From a phage, in sequence record NC_135730.1: a stretch of 64,000 nucleotides of DNA, one strand, 5' to 3'. Below, piece after piece: positions 10,359-23,601 of this stretch; the stretch's first letter is position 1; each line of letters starts with the position of its first letter. The position numbers and the translations under genes are program-made. The notes under the pieces were generated by a model. The model made no database searches and was not told the DNA's origin. It saw only the letters and a program-made list of their open reading frames with translations.

Positions 10359-12695
10359 ATGGCTACAAACAAAATAGTTGCCACAACAGTCAACAAGATT
10401 GGCTTTGAGATAGAGAACTCCTCCTACAAAAAAGCTGTAGAGAAAATTCGCAGTATTGGGAGGGAGTTCAGGAAACTGGGCGAGGATTTTAACTCAGCCA
10501 ACCCCATGAGTAGATGGCAGGCGGTAGCTGTTAAAACCCAGCAGACAATGCAGAGGGTTGCCAGACAGCAATCTCAGGCAAATGCTAAACTGCACAGAGA
10601 GAGCGTAGCACAGGCCAAGAAAGAGGCTGCAGTAAGGGCTGCAATAGAACGTAGGGAGAATGCGAGACGTAAACAAGCTGTAGGTAATCTTACCGCTAAA
10701 AATCCAGAAATGGCTAGGATGCGTAAGTTCTACCAGCAGCAAGCTAAAGAGGCCAAAAAGGCTGCCAAATCTGCACCAGTGTCTTACGGTGGTTATAAGG
10801 CACCTAAGGCAAGAGTTTTGGCTAATGCCAAATCTTTCAAATATATCCCCGGTAACCCTAATATGGGTGGTGTGGCTTCCGACCCTAACCTTGTGAAAGC
10901 TCAGACAGCCGCTATGAATCGTTATCATAGACAGCTAAGAAGAGACAGTAAAGCTGGTATGGATAATAGGCTTATGTCGGATCGTGAGGCAAGGAGAACC
11001 CACCTCTACAACTCCGCGATAAGACTTTCTGCCAAGTATGGGGCCGGATTCCGTGGAAGCTTGCCAGGATACTCAGAGTTAGAGTCCAGGTTTGCTCGCG
11101 GAGAGATGAAGAAGTCAACCTTTAACGCCCACCTGTCAGCGCTGCAGTCTGGGTTTAAAAGCGCCACCAGCCAAACGCTTACACTAGGCGATGCCATGAG
11201 AGACTTACGTAGATCTGTTATTAATGCAACAGCTGCGTATACAGCTTTTTCTGGATTTGCTGCGGTTAACAGATCTGGTCACATGATGGAGGGGGCAAGT
11301 GCTGCTCTTACTGCTGTTACTGGAGATCCAAACAAAGCCAACAGTGAGGTTGCGTTTGTCCAGCAAGAGGCTATGCGTCTTGGTTTTGATCTCAAATCTG
11401 GTCTTCAAGGTTACGCTCAAATGTCGGTAAACGCCAAAAACCAGATGACAAATCAGGAAGTGCATGAGCTGTTTTCTGCATACTCACAGTATGCTGCTGC
11501 TTATGGTGCCGATGAGGTAAAATACCAGCGCGGTATTATGGCAATCCAACAGATGCTCGGTAAAGGGCAAGTAATGTCTGAAGAACTGAAGCAACAACTT
11601 GCTGAAGCATTGCCTGGTGCATACGAACCTTTTATCAAGGCCACCAAAGAGGCTTTTGGTCTTTCTGAACTCTCCATGGATCAGTTCATGGACATGATGA
11701 AGAAAGGTGAGGTTAAAACAGCCAAGATCATGAAGTATGTGGCTAAGTACATGAACGAGGCATCTGCAGCTGGTTATGAAAGAATGCAGAAGTCTAACGT
11801 GCTGGCAGAAAACAGACTGAAAACCTTCATCGAACTGACTCGTCAGAAACTGTTCACCCGTTGGTCTGACGAACTAACAGAGTTCTATTATACACTAATC
11901 CGCACTGGTGAGACTCTGCAATTTGTGTGGGATGCCTCTGGTGATTTTGTTAGCGGGTTTGTGAGAGGCCTTAACTGGGTAGTTGGTGAACTAAACAACA
12001 CTATAGTCAAGATCCGCATGTTTTTCCTTGAATGGGGGATTAAATGGGGATTCATAACAGCTAAGACGAAGGAATATTCTGAAGAGCTTCATGACACCTT
12101 TAGCTATGCTAAATGGGCAGGGTTTGCTGCTGCCATCATGCTGGTAGTCAACGCCCTAACAAAAGGTTTTGTCATGGCATCCATGCTTGTAAAAACCTTT
12201 AAATTCCTTAACTCTCTAAGGGGTGCAGCTGGAGCAGCGGGTGCCGCTACTACAGAAGGGTCTGGTGGTGGAGCTCCGGCAGGAAAAGGTGGAGGTGGCC
12301 TCAAGACACCTGGTGGCAAAGTTGGTCTGCTCGGTAAGCTGGGCATTATCGGTACAATACTAAGCGCCGGGGAATTATTTAATGACCGTTACAACCCACT
12401 AAGTGAAAGAAATCAGCAGCTGGATACTATCAGCGATATGATTCGCAAAGATATCATATCGGGAGGTAACGGGTTTGTTAATCCTTTGGACACCTTACCT
12501 GGCGGGACTCTTCCGTTGCCAGGTGGCCCTGGTTTTGCTTCTCAATTAAGAACTATGGAAATGCTACCTTTAGAGATCAGTGATGGGAAAATCACGATTT
12601 CAATAGATGAGGGTGAGTTTAACAAAATATTTGATGCAAAACTTGAGTGGGAGAACAATAAAGATATCAACTTCATGTCTACCGACCTTTGGTAA
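10359..12695 (+). CDS. tail tape measure protein
   Basis: 778-aa ORF with helical N-terminal region and Gly-rich segment (GAAGAAGAATTEGSGGGAPAGKGGGG); located after the chaperone pair. Confidence 0.7.
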   Translation: MATNKIVATTVNKIGFEIENSSYKKAVEKIRSIGREFRKLGEDFNSANPMSRWQAVAVKTQQTMQRVARQQSQANAKLHRESVAQAKKEAAVRAAIERRENARRKQAVGNLTAKNPEMARMRKFYQQQAKEAKKAAKSAPVSYGGYKAPKARVLANAKSFKYIPGNPNMGGVASDPNLVKAQTAAMNRYHRQLRRDSKAGMDNRLMSDREARRTHLYNSAIRLSAKYGAGFRGSLPGYSELESRFARGEMKKSTFNAHLSALQSGFKSATSQTLTLGDAMRDLRRSVINATAAYTAFSGFAAVNRSGHMMEGASAALTAVTGDPNKANSEVAFVQQEAMRLGFDLKSGLQGYAQMSVNAKNQMTNQEVHELFSAYSQYAAAYGADEVKYQRGIMAIQQMLGKGQVMSEELKQQLAEALPGAYEPFIKATKEAFGLSELSMDQFMDMMKKGEVKTAKIMKYVAKYMNEASAAGYERMQKSNVLAENRLKTFIELTRQKLFTRWSDELTEFYYTLIRTGETLQFVWDASGDFVSGFVRGLNWVVGELNNTIVKIRMFFLEWGIKWGFITAKTKEYSEELHDTFSYAKWAGFAAAIMLVVNALTKGFVMASMLVKTFKFLNSLRGAAGAAGAATTEGSGGGAPAGKGGGGLKTPGGKVGLLGKLGIIGTILSAGELFNDRYNPLSERNQQLDTISDMIRKDIISGGNGFVNPLDTLPGGTLPLPGGPGFASQLRTMEMLPLEISDGKITISIDEGEFNKIFDAKLEWENNKDINFMSTDLW

Positions 12696-12706
12696 TAAAC
12701 TGTGCA

Positions 12707-15771: not shown

Positions 15772-16488
15772 ATGGCTACGCTTTACAGTGATATATTGAT
15801 GGACCCACAGACAGGTGATTTGGCGATAGACAAAGGTCTTGAGTTGATAGATTCAAACCAGGTAAGTCTGCGCCAGCGCTTGTGGATGAGGTTTAATACG
15901 TGGAAGGGGAGCTGGTACTTTGACGAGTTGTTTGGCTTCCCTTATATGGACTTTCTCAGTAAGAAGGTCATGAAGACTGTTCTTGATAACAAGATTATGG
16001 AAGTGGCAAGACAAGAGCCGGATGTGCTAAACATCATAAACTTCCAGTCTACCATGGATCGAAGATCGAGAACATACCAAGCGTTCTTTGAGGTTGTTAC
16101 CAAAGAGAACGAGATTGTAAGGCTGGCTTTCGTAGGTCTTGATCAGTTCACCTACCCACAGCCTGATTCTGGGACAACCTCTCTCTGTGATGATGAGGGT
16201 TGGATTAAGTGGGCTAATAAACTGTACTATCTGATCAACTTCAGGTTGCCTAGAACCGGAGATGCCACATGGTGGAACCAGTATGCTGGTCCTGAGATGG
16301 AAAACCCGATCCCTGTAGGCTCTCTGTTGACTCAGGATAAAGATCTGCTGATGACTGAGGCAGAACAAACCATTAACCGCAATACCTGGACGCTTGCTCC
16401 AGATGAGCGCGAATACTCTGGTGTTATTGCTACCTCCAATGACGAGGCTATTGCCAACCAGTCTGGTCGTGCTATTGATGTTAACTAA
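15772..16488 (+). CDS. putative baseplate wedge protein (gp25 / gpW-like N-terminus)
   Basis: N-terminal pattern DPQTGDL...GSWYFDELFGFPY resembles gp25-like proteins; follows the spike gene. Confidence 0.35.
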   Translation: MATLYSDILMDPQTGDLAIDKGLELIDSNQVSLRQRLWMRFNTWKGSWYFDELFGFPYMDFLSKKVMKTVLDNKIMEVARQEPDVLNIINFQSTMDRRSRTYQAFFEVVTKENEIVRLAFVGLDQFTYPQPDSGTTSLCDDEGWIKWANKLYYLINFRLPRTGDATWWNQYAGPEMENPIPVGSLLTQDKDLLMTEAEQTINRNTWTLAPDEREYSGVIATSNDEAIANQSGRAIDVN

Positions 16489-16497
16489 GGAGAAATC

Positions 16498-17166
16498 ATG
16501 GCTGTAGCTTATCCTACAATACCAATTCCAGATCTTGAAGATGCAGAAACAGTCCTGAGTGATGACTTCTTGGTTGTCAACCAGACTGATGGGACAAGAA
16601 AGGCTAAGATTGACGATGTTGTCAACGATCTTAGCATTACTAAGATAGTCTATTTCACAGAGGGTGGTTATCTTAAGAGCAAGAAGGACTTTGCTTATGA
16701 TCCAGAAACTAAGCGCTACTACACGTGGAACGGGGATTATCCTAAAATAATCCTCCCAGACTCCACGGTAGAGGGCGCTGGGGGTGTGTCTGCAAATGCC
16801 TGGTCTGTTTTTGGTGAGCTTGCTGCAACTTCTTCTGGCAGAATAGTTGATTACGGATCTATCGGTGGTCAGCTTGATATGGATCTTGAAGTTGCGGATA
16901 CCTTTAAAGTTCGACTAACTTCAAATACCACAATCTCTTTTGAAAATCAAACAGAAGGTCTTGAAGGGGTGGCGAGAACTATAACCGTATGCATTACTCA
17001 GACCTCTGGCGGCAACAAAGTCTATTGGCCTGGTAATGTTAAATGGTCCTACGGAAGAGATCCTATCCTAACATTTACAGCTGGTGCAACAGACATTTTC
17101 AAGTTGGAAACCTACGACAACGGGTTAACTTGGTACGGGGCACTGATTATCGCAGGAGCTATCTAA
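16498..17166 (+). CDS. short tail fibre / tailspike-like protein with shared N-terminal anchor domain
   Basis: N-terminal ~100 aa align with the N-terminus of the 1266-aa fibre (DDFLVV..D.TR.KI.DVV...EGG.L...DFAY...AW). Confidence 0.45.
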   Translation: MAVAYPTIPIPDLEDAETVLSDDFLVVNQTDGTRKAKIDDVVNDLSITKIVYFTEGGYLKSKKDFAYDPETKRYYTWNGDYPKIILPDSTVEGAGGVSANAWSVFGELAATSSGRIVDYGSIGGQLDMDLEVADTFKVRLTSNTTISFENQTEGLEGVARTITVCITQTSGGNKVYWPGNVKWSYGRDPILTFTAGATDIFKLETYDNGLTWYGALIIAGAI

Positions 17167-17167
17167 G

Positions 17168-19765
17168 ATGCGTATTCAACATAACATTGATAACGTATTT
17201 CAGATGATTGAGGGGCACAGGAAGTGCCTCGATAACAACACAGGTATTACCAACACCCCTACACAAAATAAGCTAGTAAACCCTGATGGTCTTATAGCTG
17301 CAGGGTGGGCAGGTAATAAGATAAATAATGATTGGGCAATGCATGAGTCCCAAGCTGTGTTGATTCTGGGATACATTGAAGCATACAGAGCATCGAAAAG
17401 CGATTTCTATCTGGATAGGGCAAAAGATGCTTGGGAAGCTTACAATAGTCATCTTCTGGGTGCATATGCAGTAGAAAGTAAAATGCAAAGATTGTCCCAC
17501 TACCCTCTATCCACAGATGGGGTTCCATCACATGGTGGGTTTAAAGATGTGGTGGTGTCTTTTACCAATGGTAGAGGAAAAATCCCAGCTGGATCTCCGA
17601 CATGGGGGGAATACCTGGACAAGGCATTCCAAGCGTATAACGGCGTGTTAGGAAGAAACACTGTAGACTCTGATGTTTACGGCGGCACAGATGCTAACCC
17701 AGATTGGACAACATCCGGATTAAGTTGGTGGGTTGAGTGGTATATAGCATGGGATGGTAATCGCTATTGGGCTAACGGTAGTATAGCTGATAGTGGTCAT
17801 ACGTCTGTAGAGTTTGGCACAATCCAATTACAAGATAAGGGTGTTACAGGCAACCACAAAGTGACCTATTGTGTAAGATTACCTCAAGAGCAGGGTGGAT
17901 CGGTGATACCTGCAGGATCCCCTGTAATTGTAAATCCCATAAACGTGGTTGCAGATAATCAGGCCCCAGAGTTGGACGGGGAAGAAATGTGGTGTGACGC
18001 TTGTTATCAACTCTACACCTTGACAGGTGAGGAAAAGTATTACACCGCGTTTGAACAGTCTTACAACAAGTTGCTTAATTTCAGTGATATAAACGCCTAC
18101 GACAAACTGTTTAGGAAGACCACGTTGATTAAGGCACCGTTTACAGATGGTACTTGTCTTGTTGCAGGAACAGTTCCTGTCATGAGCAGGGACAGTGACG
18201 GATATATCAATTTTAGAATGAACGCACGCCAGCCTTGCGAAATAATTCAAAAAGGGACTACATACAAAATAGGCAGAGATGCTGAAATTGTTATGAATTT
18301 CGGAGGAGAAGGGGTTCTGTTCCAGCCACATTTCATCATTAATGATGGCAACAATAACAAAAAACAGTACAGGATAGGTGTTCCTTTTGGAGGGGCAGAG
18401 GTAACAGAAATAGTTGCCAAGGTTACCGATTTCGTAGAGGTGGTTGGTAAAGACGGTAATCCATATCTCTTACCTAAAGAGGAAAACATTGTCGTAAGTG
18501 GTGGCGCTAGTGTTAGTATGCAGTATGATACCGACATTTACAACCACTCTGACAACTTCACCCGTTGTAATATAGCAAGAGGTAAAGTAACTTTCAATTT
18601 TGGAAGAGAGATTTCTTTAAACTCAGTAACTTATCGATCAGATGATGAGATGGTAAGGGTCAAATTTCTTGACAAAGACAGGTGGTTATGGTATGCTGAT
18701 CTATATGCCACTAATGGACAATGGATAACAGAAACTCTTACTCTAGGAGATTTCAAACTAGATCCGACACAACCTCATCACACTGAAGAAGAGATTAAAC
18801 CTTTCTTTGCTAATCCTAAGGGGCTCACCTCTGTAGATTTCAGCCTAAGCGACAGGCAGATAGGTAATGGCTTGTTTGATCTATATTGCGTCAACACGCT
18901 GCCGCAATTCTATATTGCAGATAGGGATGCTTATCTAATCTGGTTTAGCGTATGGATGGCAAGCAAGACAGAATCAACCGCTAAGGTTGGCGATTGCTAT
19001 GTCAGAAACTACAAGCAAGGTGCATACAGGCACACACCAGGTGTGTTCCCTGCCGGAAAGGTGATAGATAAGGAAAACTATCTCTTAGAGGAAAGGCCAA
19101 ATTGGCCCTACCCAGGCATGCAATACCCGGCAGTCTACTGCATGGGTGCAGAAAACATAGATCGCCATAGATTGTCAAATACAATAGGCTTTCTGTATGA
19201 CGCTCAAGTCTGGTATAATAATACATTTAAGACAGAGGGTCCAGTTGCCTCACGTTATGTATGGCAAAGAGGTAATGAAGGGTTGACTGGTTGGTGGGAG
19301 ATGGTAGATAACTCCAAGCTCCAGTCAAGATCTTTTGTTGCTGCGTGCCGCACAATCTATGAGCTCAAGAAACATAAAGAACCTGTTGATGAAAGATTAT
19401 TCCTGTTCTGCCAGAAATGGGCATGGTTCCTCAACAGATTCCAGTCATCTCATTCAGGAAATCTGCCTACAGACTTTAACACCTCTGGGGGATATTCTTA
19501 TCAAGACAGAGGGGACAGGATGTGGGTGGTAGGTGAATGGCTTGCAGGTTGCTGCTGGCTAGGTCTGTGCGGGTATTCAGAGACAATACCTCAAATAGAT
19601 ATTGTTGTAGAAGCCTGTATGAAGCTACTGCAAAAGCACCACTTCATCAATGGTGATAATGTTTTAAACGGCTGCTGGGCAGTTTCTGACCCGGTGGGCT
19701 ATCACTCTGGCGAAATCCTTCGCGGTCTGGGCCTCTATGCTCAATACCGTGGATTGTACCTTTAA
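17168..19765 (+). CDS. tail-associated protein with (alpha/alpha)6 glycosidase-like domain
   Basis: 865-aa ORF in the tail operon; segments such as ESQAVLILGYIEAYRASKSDFYLDRAKDAWEAY resemble six-hairpin glycosidase folds. Confidence 0.35.
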   Translation: MRIQHNIDNVFQMIEGHRKCLDNNTGITNTPTQNKLVNPDGLIAAGWAGNKINNDWAMHESQAVLILGYIEAYRASKSDFYLDRAKDAWEAYNSHLLGAYAVESKMQRLSHYPLSTDGVPSHGGFKDVVVSFTNGRGKIPAGSPTWGEYLDKAFQAYNGVLGRNTVDSDVYGGTDANPDWTTSGLSWWVEWYIAWDGNRYWANGSIADSGHTSVEFGTIQLQDKGVTGNHKVTYCVRLPQEQGGSVIPAGSPVIVNPINVVADNQAPELDGEEMWCDACYQLYTLTGEEKYYTAFEQSYNKLLNFSDINAYDKLFRKTTLIKAPFTDGTCLVAGTVPVMSRDSDGYINFRMNARQPCEIIQKGTTYKIGRDAEIVMNFGGEGVLFQPHFIINDGNNNKKQYRIGVPFGGAEVTEIVAKVTDFVEVVGKDGNPYLLPKEENIVVSGGASVSMQYDTDIYNHSDNFTRCNIARGKVTFNFGREISLNSVTYRSDDEMVRVKFLDKDRWLWYADLYATNGQWITETLTLGDFKLDPTQPHHTEEEIKPFFANPKGLTSVDFSLSDRQIGNGLFDLYCVNTLPQFYIADRDAYLIWFSVWMASKTESTAKVGDCYVRNYKQGAYRHTPGVFPAGKVIDKENYLLEERPNWPYPGMQYPAVYCMGAENIDRHRLSNTIGFLYDAQVWYNNTFKTEGPVASRYVWQRGNEGLTGWWEMVDNSKLQSRSFVAACRTIYELKKHKEPVDERLFLFCQKWAWFLNRFQSSHSGNLPTDFNTSGGYSYQDRGDRMWVVGEWLAGCCWLGLCGYSETIPQIDIVVEACMKLLQKHHFINGDNVLNGCWAVSDPVGYHSGEILRGLGLYAQYRGLYL

Positions 19766-19769
19766 CATA

Positions 19770-19789
19770 GGGGGCTGTTTGCCCCCTTT
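19770..19789 (+). terminator. GC hairpin / weak terminator
   Basis: GGGGGC-tgttt-GCCCCC followed by only TTT, then the RBS of the next gene. Confidence 0.3.
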
Positions 19790-19800
19790 CAGGAGAAAGA

Positions 19801-22800
19801 ATGGCTGATATTAAAGTTGTCAGAATTGAATCTCTTCCTGCCACTACCGCAGTGACAGAGGATGATTACCTGGTTGTTCAACAACCAGACCTGACCCGTC
19901 GTGTAAAAATTGGCGATGTTGTCCATGTTGATGGGACTGTTTCTCATGTAATCTCCTTTAAGGAAGGTGGTAAGTTAAACGGCCCAATGGATTTTGCCTA
20001 CTTCGAAGAGGAAGACCTCTACCTGCGTTGGAAAGGCGAATTTCCGCACACTGTTCCTGCATTGTCTTCACCGTACTCCGATGGTGGGATTACTGACGCT
20101 GCATGGACGGTATATACAGACCCGTCCTTAAGGGAGGAGCTGGAATCTACCATTGGCGCATCTATGATCATGACAGCCGAAGGGCAGTCTGTCCAGGATG
20201 TAATGGATGTTACTGTTCAGACAGCTAACGATGCCAAAGCACTTGCACAGCGTGTAGATTTTGGTACAGTGCACACTGTAGGCGATGTTATTCACCTTGA
20301 TAACTTTGTTGGCCCTGCAGTTATTGAAGAGGGAAGAACTACCAACTACCCTTCTGCAGCAGCTGGTGAAAAATTTCTGAACGGTGTGGTATCTCGTCGT
20401 GATACTACAACTGTTGATGGTATTTTCCGTGGCGCTACCACCGGAGCCATGTACACCATTGCAGTAACCAACGGTGTAGCAACAACGAAAAGAATAGCAC
20501 TTCGTGATGAATTTAAACGCCTGGAGGCAAACAACCCAACAAGAACAGTTATCCGTGCTGGAGATGATTTAAACACGGCAGGGTACTTGCAGCTTGACGC
20601 AACAGGCCGTTGGGGTATGTGGAACCAACAAACAGCCTCGTGGCAACCTCTTGCTATAGAGCAAGGAGGCACAGGGGCTAGAGATGCCGCTGGAGTCCGT
20701 ATCAATATCGGTGCTTTCTATAAGCAACGTGCAGCCCTTGAGCCAAATTTCAATATCAATAACTTGACTGGTAATCAGGATGGTGTATACTACCAGCCGA
20801 TGACTGCTTATGCAACTGAGGCAAATGGTTACCCTGCAGGTTCTGGTGCTGGTCACCTGATTGTTTGGCAGAACAATGCTAACGGCGGTACAGGTTGTCG
20901 TCAGGAATACTATCCATTCTCTAACGTAGATGTTTGGTATTTAAGAACCTATCAGGCCAACACAAATCAGTGGACTGCATGGCAGCCGATGGTCAGACCT
21001 CGTAACGATGATACCTTTAGAGCGCACATCGGTCTCGGGTCTAGAAACTCCCCTACCTTTGGGCACCTTTACCTGTCTCAAAGTTCTGCTGATGTTAAGT
21101 CAGCATCAGGTATTGTTAACGGGGACAAATACAGCGCTGACGGTGTCCTTGAGCATGGATATAGGATCTACTCTGAGGTAAGAAACGACAATAAGGCTTG
21201 GTTGACAATCCACCTGCACAAAGGTGCAAAAGGATCTGAAACTCATAGATATTTAGGTTTCCGCGAAGATGGCGTGTTAGACTGCCCTAAATACATGCAG
21301 GTTGGGGATCTTACTGGTCAGCTGACAAACTGGGGTCTTGGAGAATGGATCCGTAGTTCAGGGGCAGAAAGAGGCTTCTGGGGGTCCAAGAAAGCCGCCA
21401 AGATGGTTGTCTGGGATGGTGGGATGGACGAATCCGGTAACGGCACTCTGGAATGGGGTGTTTATAACAACCGGAAGGCCAAGTGGGAACCTTTACCTCA
21501 AGCCGCAGGTGGTACTGGGGCTACAACTTTAGCAGATGCTCAGAATCTGTTCAAAGTTCCTATAGCAGCAGGTGTGAAAGACTTCTTAACACTGCCAAGA
21601 ACCGCAGGGATGGAAGATGGGAAATACTACCCGATCATCGTTAGAACAGATCCGTACTATGCTCCAGCAACTGGTACTGATATTACCATAGTTACCAGAT
21701 CGTCATCTGGAAATGACCCTATGAACTGTGCTACCTTACAGTGTCACTATAGAACTGGTGGTTGGACAGACAGAGGAGACTCTTTCTACGGGGTAGTAAA
21801 TTTCTACCAGAATGAAAAAGCACTTCTTGGGATGGTTGCTCCAACAAGGGGTAAACAAGAGTATGTTGCTTTCTATGTAGAGGCTCGTGCTTTCCCTGTC
21901 AGCATATACGCAAGTAGAAATGTTATCGAAGTGTTTACCAGAGAGCAAGATTACCAGGTCGGCTCTGTAACAAACAATCAGGATGGGGTTAAGTTCGTTG
22001 CACCTCTCCAGTCAGCAGATTTGAATCTTGCTATTCTTGGAGATAACAACACCAATACCAGACCTATTGTTGACTTCAAAGGTACTTCAGGGTTCTACAC
22101 TGGCGGCGGCACACAGTGGCACTATATAGGCACTGCTGAACGCTATGCTGTGATGAGCAAAATGAATATGCCAAAAGTCGAGCTATGGGCAGACGGTCTT
22201 GACTATTTGTGCTACGGCAGTCCTAGAAAGGCGTTATTCTCTAATGCAGGATTCCAGTGTGCATCCGATGGGACAGAGGATCTGACTAACGGTACGTTTA
22301 CCTCTAAATGCGGTAATGGTGCTGGTCTCAAAGGTCAGGCAGAGTTCAGATCTACTCCGGAAGCGGGTCAAGTTATTGTTCGCGATGTTGTAGGCACAGC
22401 TCATAGATTCTACAACTTCAACAAGGATGGTACTTTCTCAGCTCCTGGTGGTTTTGTATGCCATACTGGTGCAGACTGGAACAACCAGTTTGGGCCTAAC
22501 AACCCATCCAAAATAATGGCAGGCAATGTCAACGGACCTGAAGGATCGATGGTTGTTGGTGGGTTGTCTGTAGCGTTTTCTGGAAACTATGCCTTCCAAA
22601 TGGCTGGTCGCCTTGATCAGTTATACACCAGATCTATCGAGGGTGGTAACCATAGGGCATGGAACAAGGTTATACAGCACAGAGGACAGGGTCTTGGGAC
22701 AAACGACCTTAACGACTACAAAGGAGATAGGGAGGGTTTTTATCATCAGGAGACCAATGCTCAAGCCGCACTTGATAAAAACTACCCATGCTCCCAGGCA

Positions 22801-23601
22801 GGTACTCTCGTTGTCTACAGAAACTATGCCAACGTTCCAGAGAGTTGCGTACAGGAATATACAACATATCTTGGAGAAAAATTCCTGCGTTATGGAACAA
22901 CGATAGGTGGTGTTTTCACATGGGGCCATTGGCAGCAGCTTGGTGGTAAGGGTATCACTCTAAAAACTCAAGGATCCAATCTTGAACCGGAGTTCACAAT
23001 ACACACGGGTGGTGGGACGGATGTTACCAACACTTCCAACATGCCTTCTAATACAGGCAGGTTGTACTATTGGGGTAATGGCGCAGATAGGAAGAATGTG
23101 CTGGAGTTTCAGATAAGTGATAACTCAACAGTCGCCAACTGGGTATTCCACTGTGGCGCTAAGGCAGATGAGGCTAAATCAAGATATTTTGCTGTCAACG
23201 GCACGGTAGAATGTACTACTGTTAGCCAAAGTTCCGATAGGGACCTGAAGGATAACATAGAGGTCATACCTAACGCTCTGGAAGCAATTAGAAAAATGAA
23301 AGGCTATACCTACACCTTGAAAGAGAATGGTATGCCTTATGCAGGCGTGATTGCTCAAGAGGTTATGGAAGCATTGCCAGAGGCAGTAGGATCTTTCGTG
23401 AAAAGGAAGGAAATAGAAGGTCCTACTCAAGACGGCATTCCTTTGATGACCGAGGAAAGGTTCTATAACGTTGACTACGCAGCTGTAACAGGCTTGCTTG
23501 TCCAGGTTTGCAGGGAACAGGACGATAAAATAACCGCCCTTGAGGAGCAGGTTAAAAAATTGACAGAGGTTGTTACTGGGTTGCAAGAGAAACTGAAGTA
23601 A
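19801..23601 (+). CDS. tail fibre / tailspike with C-terminal intramolecular chaperone (peptidase S74-like) domain
   Basis: C-terminal SDRDLKDNIE...GYTYTLKENG...GVIAQEV matches the auto-cleaving chaperone domain of endosialidase / L-shaped fibre proteins; N-terminal anchor domain shared with 16498-17166. Confidence 0.65.
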   Translation: MADIKVVRIESLPATTAVTEDDYLVVQQPDLTRRVKIGDVVHVDGTVSHVISFKEGGKLNGPMDFAYFEEEDLYLRWKGEFPHTVPALSSPYSDGGITDAAWTVYTDPSLREELESTIGASMIMTAEGQSVQDVMDVTVQTANDAKALAQRVDFGTVHTVGDVIHLDNFVGPAVIEEGRTTNYPSAAAGEKFLNGVVSRRDTTTVDGIFRGATTGAMYTIAVTNGVATTKRIALRDEFKRLEANNPTRTVIRAGDDLNTAGYLQLDATGRWGMWNQQTASWQPLAIEQGGTGARDAAGVRINIGAFYKQRAALEPNFNINNLTGNQDGVYYQPMTAYATEANGYPAGSGAGHLIVWQNNANGGTGCRQEYYPFSNVDVWYLRTYQANTNQWTAWQPMVRPRNDDTFRAHIGLGSRNSPTFGHLYLSQSSADVKSASGIVNGDKYSADGVLEHGYRIYSEVRNDNKAWLTIHLHKGAKGSETHRYLGFREDGVLDCPKYMQVGDLTGQLTNWGLGEWIRSSGAERGFWGSKKAAKMVVWDGGMDESGNGTLEWGVYNNRKAKWEPLPQAAGGTGATTLADAQNLFKVPIAAGVKDFLTLPRTAGMEDGKYYPIIVRTDPYYAPATGTDITIVTRSSSGNDPMNCATLQCHYRTGGWTDRGDSFYGVVNFYQNEKALLGMVAPTRGKQEYVAFYVEARAFPVSIYASRNVIEVFTREQDYQVGSVTNNQDGVKFVAPLQSADLNLAILGDNNTNTRPIVDFKGTSGFYTGGGTQWHYIGTAERYAVMSKMNMPKVELWADGLDYLCYGSPRKALFSNAGFQCASDGTEDLTNGTFTSKCGNGAGLKGQAEFRSTPEAGQVIVRDVVGTAHRFYNFNKDGTFSAPGGFVCHTGADWNNQFGPNNPSKIMAGNVNGPEGSMVVGGLSVAFSGNYAFQMAGRLDQLYTRSIEGGNHRAWNKVIQHRGQGLGTNDLNDYKGDREGFYHQETNAQAALDKNYPCSQAGTLVVYRNYANVPESCVQEYTTYLGEKFLRYGTTIGGVFTWGHWQQLGGKGITLKTQGSNLEPEFTIHTGGGTDVTNTSNMPSNTGRLYYWGNGADRKNVLEFQISDNSTVANWVFHCGAKADEAKSRYFAVNGTVECTTVSQSSDRDLKDNIEVIPNALEAIRKMKGYTYTLKENGMPYAGVIAQEVMEALPEAVGSFVKRKEIEGPTQDGIPLMTEERFYNVDYAAVTGLLVQVCREQDDKITALEEQVKKLTEVVTGLQEKLK
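23233..23598 (+). other. intramolecular chaperone auto-processing domain (within the 19801-23601 CDS)
   Basis: Last ~122 residues starting at SDRDLKDNIE; predicted self-cleavage at the Ser preceding DRDLKDNIE. Confidence 0.5.

Follow-up and report, generated by a model that had tools for sequence, protein, structure and literature searches.

Does the 865-residue protein encoded within the baseplate and fiber operon of this phage degrade host polysaccharide, and how is it carried by the virion? We addressed this question in a window of 64,000 nucleotides, the whole stretch of sequence record NC_135730.1 that was analyzed.

Identity and genetic context of gp42

The ORF read from the sequence extends from 17168 to 19765 on the plus strand, starts with ATG, and encodes 865 amino acid residues, exactly as given in the initial annotation. 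Sequence comparison and synteny identified it as an orthologue of rV5 gp42 encoded by an rV5-like myovirus. The same annotation had placed it inside a baseplate/fiber operon, and its neighbors are tail-module genes on the same strand. The co-directional block upstream contains the gene for the tape measure (10359-12695), those for the tube initiator, plug, hub, and spike, and the sheath initiator gene (15772-16488). The gene immediately upstream (16498-17166) encodes gp43, an anchor of 222 residues with a Tail_spike_N domain. The downstream plus-strand gene (19801-23601) encodes gp41, a lateral fiber of 1266 residues with Pfam Tail_spike_N (residues 46-103) and a C-terminal Peptidase_S74 domain (residues 1145-1196). 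More baseplate and fiber genes were observed 3′ of gp41.

The terminator scan placed plus-strand terminator-like sites flanking the tail block only at 12706 and 23609. A GC-rich hairpin, GGGGGC-TGTTT-GCCCCC followed by TTT, was read between gp42 and gp41 (19770-19786, plus strand); it was rejected as a terminator since it is non-canonical, and it is absent from the scan because its T-run is too short for the criterion used. The ribosome-binding site of gp42, AGGAG (17154-17158, plus strand), lies within the end of the gp43 gene, 9 nt before the start codon, and a single nucleotide separates the gp43 stop codon (17164-17166) from the gp42 ATG (17168). This spacing is consistent with translational coupling of the two genes.

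At the DNA level, gp42 was 98% identical to its counterpart in rV5 and 99.8% identical to that in JES2013, and it was near-invariant across about 119 Vequintavirus records. Phi92 gp141 matched it over its full length (residues 2-863) with 35% amino acid identity in tblastn, and the protein matched PHROG 2871 with E = 0. The gene order gp139-gp140-gp141 of phi92 is that of the window; rV5 gp42, phi92 gp141, and the BASEL protein (PHROG 2871) are the same gene, kept at its position after the sheath initiator and a small anchor. Neither gp42 nor the C-terminal domain (CTD) of the anchor has a paralogue elsewhere in the window. The claim that the protein belongs to the virion module was borne out, as the gene lies within the tail module and rV5 gp42 was among the proteins detected by phage-particle proteomics (PMC3606486). 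The orthologue identified by sequence comparison in another phage, bas54_0026, can carry transposon insertions when the host is E. coli K-12, and bas54_0026 and bas54_0027 are both dispensable (bioRxiv 10.1101/2025.11.20.689424).

The glycosidase idea is already present in public annotation and is not new. BASEL records label the gene "lateral tail fiber protein with glycosidase domains," and phi92 gp141 is entered as "Glycosidase" in a review (PMC5380687). The gp42-family members found here carried no functional name, and our literature search for a paper characterizing the family returned none. A 2026 cryo-EM paper on phi92 left fiber II unidentified and did not mention gp141, and its "arm-like scaffold" analogy for fiber I names no phi92 protein (PMC13450770). 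We considered the Bas51 "glycosidase," in which the mutation R87* affects the retron Asa1 (PMC12548924), as a possible orthologue and rejected it, since none of the seven tail ORFs checked in the window, gp42 included, has an Arg87. The present analysis adds to the prior annotation the pairing with gp43, a weak alignment with GH8 motifs, and the motif losses in Vequintavirus, together with the dispensability on K-12 taken from the published transposon screen.

Fold of gp42 and comparison with GH8 enzymes

The AlphaFold2 model of gp42 (pLDDT 90, pTM 0.86), combined with a fold search, revealed a complete (alpha/alpha)6 toroid of the glycoside hydrolase/epimerase type that is discontinuous and interrupted by two beta-rich insertions. 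Its twelve helices pair into six hairpins, arranged as a toroid with an inner and an outer ring, the layout of the six-hairpin glycosidase-type superfamily. The initial annotation had suspected such a fold, to be given up if no glycosidase fold was matched; the complete toroid and its match to enzymes of this type supply what was looked for. Epimerases, isomerases, and terpene cyclases also use the (alpha/alpha)6 fold.

In the model, all on the plus strand, residues 1-100 (17168-17467) comprise an N-terminal helix (2-23) and hairpin 1 (59-76 and 79-96), for which weak profile matches to GH76, cellobiose 2-epimerase, and six-hairpin glycosidase were obtained. The first insertion (residues 101-262; 17468-17953; strands within 101-254) separates hairpin 1 from hairpin 2, which is formed by helices 269-286 and 289-305 (residues 263-312; 17954-18103). 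The second insertion (residues 313-640; 18104-19087; strands within 329-613) probably folds into a pair of jelly-roll/CBM-like sandwiches. It carries the near-invariant residues R341, Y489, D502, and G608, and PHROG 23426 was matched at residues 482-580. Foldseek hits to this insertion, all with low TM-scores, were Cry/Vip3 toxin domains, cupins, a surface glycan-binding protein, and 7zkp_A (TM 0.43 by target length), and one family member showed a weak Pfam CIA30 match. The remaining four hairpins lie in residues 641-865 (19088-19762; helices 663-687, 717-735, 742-761, 782-800, 809-824, and 844-864). Along the toroid, six connections between helices are short and six are long (24-58, 97-268, 306-653, 688-716, 762-781, and 825-843).

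Searches of Pfam and PDB with the single gp42 sequence found nothing. A Pfam scan of the relatives gave weak GH76 and GH127 matches, and no Pfam GH family rose above threshold for gp42 or for 36 relatives. gp42 has no trimeric right-handed beta-helix catalytic domain of the kind found in classical tailspike depolymerases.

Residue conservation was scored over 61 family sequences. Hairpin 1 bears the family motif ATTEGQ, which reads MHESQ in the window protein, with E60 (17345-17347) conserved in 93% and Q62 in 92% of the sequences. The hairpin 2 motif, xA-D-A-E-x-W, reads LDGEEMW in the window, and its D270 (17975-17977) was conserved in 93%. Residues 641-865 contain the family motifs PYPGYQYP, DSQxAY, GP..Y.W.RWDN, W.GYQ.R, PT.F, HM.GL, MNGSWS, and FGFW.GE, the last including E849 (19712-19714). 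By the helix order of the model, every family motif sits in the long toroid loops or the adjoining helix ends; motifs are laid out on the long-loop side at the catalytic face of (alpha/alpha)6 enzymes, and the conserved residues of gp42 would accordingly be expected to share a pocket face, a clustering deduced from helix order rather than coordinates.

Among enzymes with this fold, the GH8 family (clan GH-M) offered the closest motif resemblance, as judged by low-confidence alignments with E. coli BcsZ and at 9-13% identity to GH8 proteins (BcsZ and the GH8-like CPF_2247, PDB 3ren). The order of ATTEGQS, NAxDAExW, and GYQxR in the gp42 family is that of TTSEGQSY, SASDGDVW, and SYDAIR in BcsZ. 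In a low-confidence hhalign alignment, ATTEGQS was aligned with TTSEGQSY, whose E55 is the GH8 catalytic acid. The hairpin 2 motif N-A-x-D-A-E-x-W-F gave the best hhalign segment, in a non-significant alignment, with SNSASDGDVWMAW of BcsZ (SASDGDVWMAW), a stretch corresponding to the GH8 signature; the signature pattern is A-[ST]-D-[AG]-D-x2-[IM]-A and includes the Asp of subsite -1. D243 in SYDAIR, the catalytic base of BcsZ, was aligned with Q719 of gp42, a position that varies in the family (Q/E/N/Y/F/C/S/A). No catalytic base was found at the GH8 position, and the alternatives D703, which is Asn in the window, D678, and E849 were not assignable to this role.

The profile comparisons were non-significant. 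The GH8 family model (Pfam PF01270) did not match gp42 even at E <= 10, nor did it match any of 36 relatives. With the full family profile against BcsZ, used as a sequence or as a 15-member profile, hhalign aligned one motif (profile E 0.13, probability 0.45%). When the beta insertions were removed and only the toroid was used, 245 columns were aligned, again non-significantly (E 0.016, probability 2.8%). Across all GH8 trials, the probability ranged from 0.35 to 2.8% and E from 0.016 to 0.17. The GH8 profile was shallow because all the BcsZ homologues collected were at least 60% identical. Unlike GH8 enzymes, gp42 has toroid loops enlarged by two beta insertions of about 160 and 330 residues, and it is attached to a phage tail, whereas GH8 enzymes are periplasmic or secreted.

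The window protein retains E60, Q62, D270, Q652, D678, Q680, Q719, R721, and E849 and carries the substitutions Y651M, W702G/D703N/N704E, and H786W. In the family alignment, the Vequintavirus clade has lost the family-conserved N103, F629-S-N, Y651, W702-D703-N704, W715/Y718, and H786; the family loop "P.P..NW..NGK" at the start of the first insertion is deleted, and the "HWG...W.GY" loop is missing. Compared with phi92 gp141, the Vequintavirus protein lacks several family motifs. The two missing loops and several of the lost residues are predicted to line the pocket face, and these losses could mean a loss of activity. The same derived motif set recurs in full-length relatives that are 81% and 56% identical, indicating its long-term maintenance.

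The gp43 anchor and its pairing with gp42

gp43 (16498-17166, plus strand) consists of two parts. Residues 1-105 form a virion-attachment module with Pfam Tail_spike_N at 51-105, and residues 8-105 were 38% identical to the N-terminus of gp41 (E 5e-20). The CTD, residues 110-222 (16825-17163, plus strand), is a conserved segment of about 110 amino acids that, judging from this conservation and from genomic coupling, probably provides the docking site for gp42. This CTD is kept in phi92 gp140, Atoyac13_09 of a podovirus, and SE4 gp52 (37-47% identity, E 1e-14 to 1e-29), whereas the N-termini of these proteins differ. All anchor CTDs fell into one homology cluster, and the N-terminal parts into 17 unrelated clusters; the N-termini of other anchors include a T7 tail-fiber domain (Atoyac13, by record annotation) and a prophage tail-fiber N domain, among others.

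A CTD HMM matched one ORF, directly upstream of the gp42 homologue, in 75 of 80 IMG/VR loci. These matches were always on the same strand and at the very C-terminal end of the ORF, which itself ended within about 110 nt of the start of the gp42-homologue match. In tblastn, the gp43 CTD was detected in 525 phage records and gp42 in 524, with nearly identical genus distributions. On this genomic evidence, gp43 is the obligate upstream partner of gp42, and its CTD is predicted to dock gp42. In other phages, the toroid instead forms fusions with P2 gpI (E 4.5e-52) or, in further cases, with a lambda gpL-like domain, and these fusions would agree with a position of the toroid at the tail periphery.

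These results make the earlier description of the activity as separate from the fibers misleading: gp42 is paired with a fiber-like anchor whose N-terminus resembles that of gp41. Because of this pairing and this homology, gp42 most likely forms the head of a lateral appendage. gp43, with its Tail_spike_N module and the adjacent effector gene, has the arrangement of known anchor-effector pairs: in G7C gp66-gp63.1, CBA120 TSP1-4, the adaptor and tailspikes of K1-5/SP6, and KP32-type anchors with a second depolymerase, a short virion-binding protein is likewise followed by a larger effector. In such branched or two-component systems, trimeric beta-helix tailspikes or SGNH esterases serve as the effectors, whereas that of gp43 is an (alpha/alpha)6 toroid. 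The gp43-gp42 link also differs in its dedicated CTD of about 110 residues and its near 1:1 co-occurrence, from which docking is predicted. T2 gp38 on gp37, Mu U/S, and P2 G/H provide a second parallel, in which a fiber with a conserved C-terminus is followed by a downstream partner. T2 gp38 stays on the fiber tip and makes host contact; by analogy, gp42 would remain on the tip for the same purpose. Unlike the T2, Mu, and P2 partners, gp42 is four times the size of its "fiber," has an enzyme fold, and shows no sequence similarity to them.

Proposed function and alternatives

We propose, with a probability of roughly 60%, that gp42 is carried on the virion in an accessory role: with gp43 it would make up a lateral tail appendage of two proteins, in which gp42 is the distal, glycan-engaging head. 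The tailspike-type N-terminal module of gp43, common to gp41, would attach to the baseplate periphery, and the CTD would hold gp42. The long conserved loops and the two beta-sandwich insertions are predicted to lie on the sugar-cleft face of the GH8/six-hairpin-type toroid, with E60 and D270 as candidate catalytic or sugar-distorting carboxylates. The appendage would then engage a host surface polysaccharide, which is the likely ligand, by binding and possibly by cleavage. gp42 would thereby aid adsorption on glycan-bearing hosts while being unneeded on E. coli K-12.

One alternative, the polysaccharide-degrading activity suspected in the initial annotation, is that gp42 is an active, GH8-like inverting depolymerase that cuts host exopolysaccharide, capsule, ECA, or O-antigen at adsorption. 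We consider it less likely than not. The glycoside hydrolase fold, the two CBM-like insertions, the presence of rV5 gp42 in particles (PMC3606486), and the glycosidase names in public annotations argue for it, as do the conserved E60 and D270, aligned at low confidence with the acid Glu of GH8 and the Asp of its signature. However, a variable Gln occupies the position aligned with the GH8 base, with no catalytic base found, the Asp of RWDN (D703), H786, and several aromatic residues are gone in the Vequintavirus lineage, and no Pfam GH family reached threshold. Typical capsule or O-antigen depolymerases vary with host serotype, whereas gp42 shows the near-invariance among about 119 Vequintavirus records described above. 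For the Vequintavirus protein itself, we put hydrolysis somewhat short of an even chance. If the gp42 family is catalytic, it would represent a new class of virion-borne glycan hydrolase distinct from the beta-helix tailspikes.

The losses in Vequintavirus would fit a non-catalytic, lectin-like glycan-binding head, a pseudo-enzyme, with catalysis perhaps persisting in phi92 gp141-like relatives that have the full motifs. The lineage lacks about ten loop residues that the family conserves, as well as two loops, while E60, Q62, D270, Q652, D678, Q680, R721, and E849 are kept, the derived state is held even in the 56%-identity relative, and the orthologue is dispensable on K-12. Binding alone, however, needs no retained GH8-like carboxylates, and the loop remodeling may equally reflect a change of substrate. 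We consider this reading rather unlikely. If it holds, it would warn against annotating depolymerases from the fold alone.

It is improbable that gp42 is instead a structural adaptor or branching hub that mainly links other fiber proteins, such as gp41 or, in phi92, gp142/gp143, to the baseplate and uses the enzyme fold as a scaffold. The gene does lie between the anchor and long fiber genes, bas54_0026 and bas54_0027 are both dispensable, and the phi92 cryo-EM paper leaves room for such a part in its unassigned fiber II and its silence on gp141 (PMC13450770). However, gp41 need not hang on gp42, because it bears its own copy of the gp43-type attachment module. In addition, the cassette of the podovirus Atoyac13 and Loughboroughvirus SE4 has no following fiber gene, and the strongest family conservation maps to the predicted pocket face, not to the outer surface. 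Other chemistry on the same fold (a sugar epimerase or isomerase, an unsaturated-uronyl hydrolase acting after a lyase, or a polysaccharide lyase) is very improbable, given that AGE-type enzymes use conserved His residues whereas the sole family-conserved His (H786) is Trp in the window, that small sugars are the substrates of GH88/GH105 enzymes and of epimerases, an unexpected activity at a tail tip, and that the gp42 motifs resemble GH8 best.

Returning to gp42 as the head of the gp43-anchored appendage, a more far-reaching version, which we regard as speculative and unlikely in its entirety, would make the gp43 CTD and gp42 a portable tail-tip enzyme cassette with its own docking domain. 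Its enzyme would be distantly GH8-related and effectively a new CAZy family, directed at a conserved envelope glycan of Proteobacteria and not at a serotype-specific capsule, and it would account for unassigned lateral cryo-EM density of phi92/rV5. The cassette would have moved among myoviruses (rV5, phi92, jumbo phages, Loughboroughvirus, and Kolesnikvirus), T7-like podoviruses, and prophages, or have become fused to the P2 gpI or lambda gpL-like domain.

The rV5- and phi92-like phages are prized because they infect a broad range of hosts, an ability credited to a "Swiss army knife" of tail appendages (PMC8594841, PMC13450770), and the gp43-gp42 two-gene unit would give a testable assignment for one of them. 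Since the anchor N-terminus is swappable and the docking domain constant, the unit would also offer an engineering handle. Members of the gp42 family occurred in 524 of 50,697 records of sequenced phages, or about 1%.

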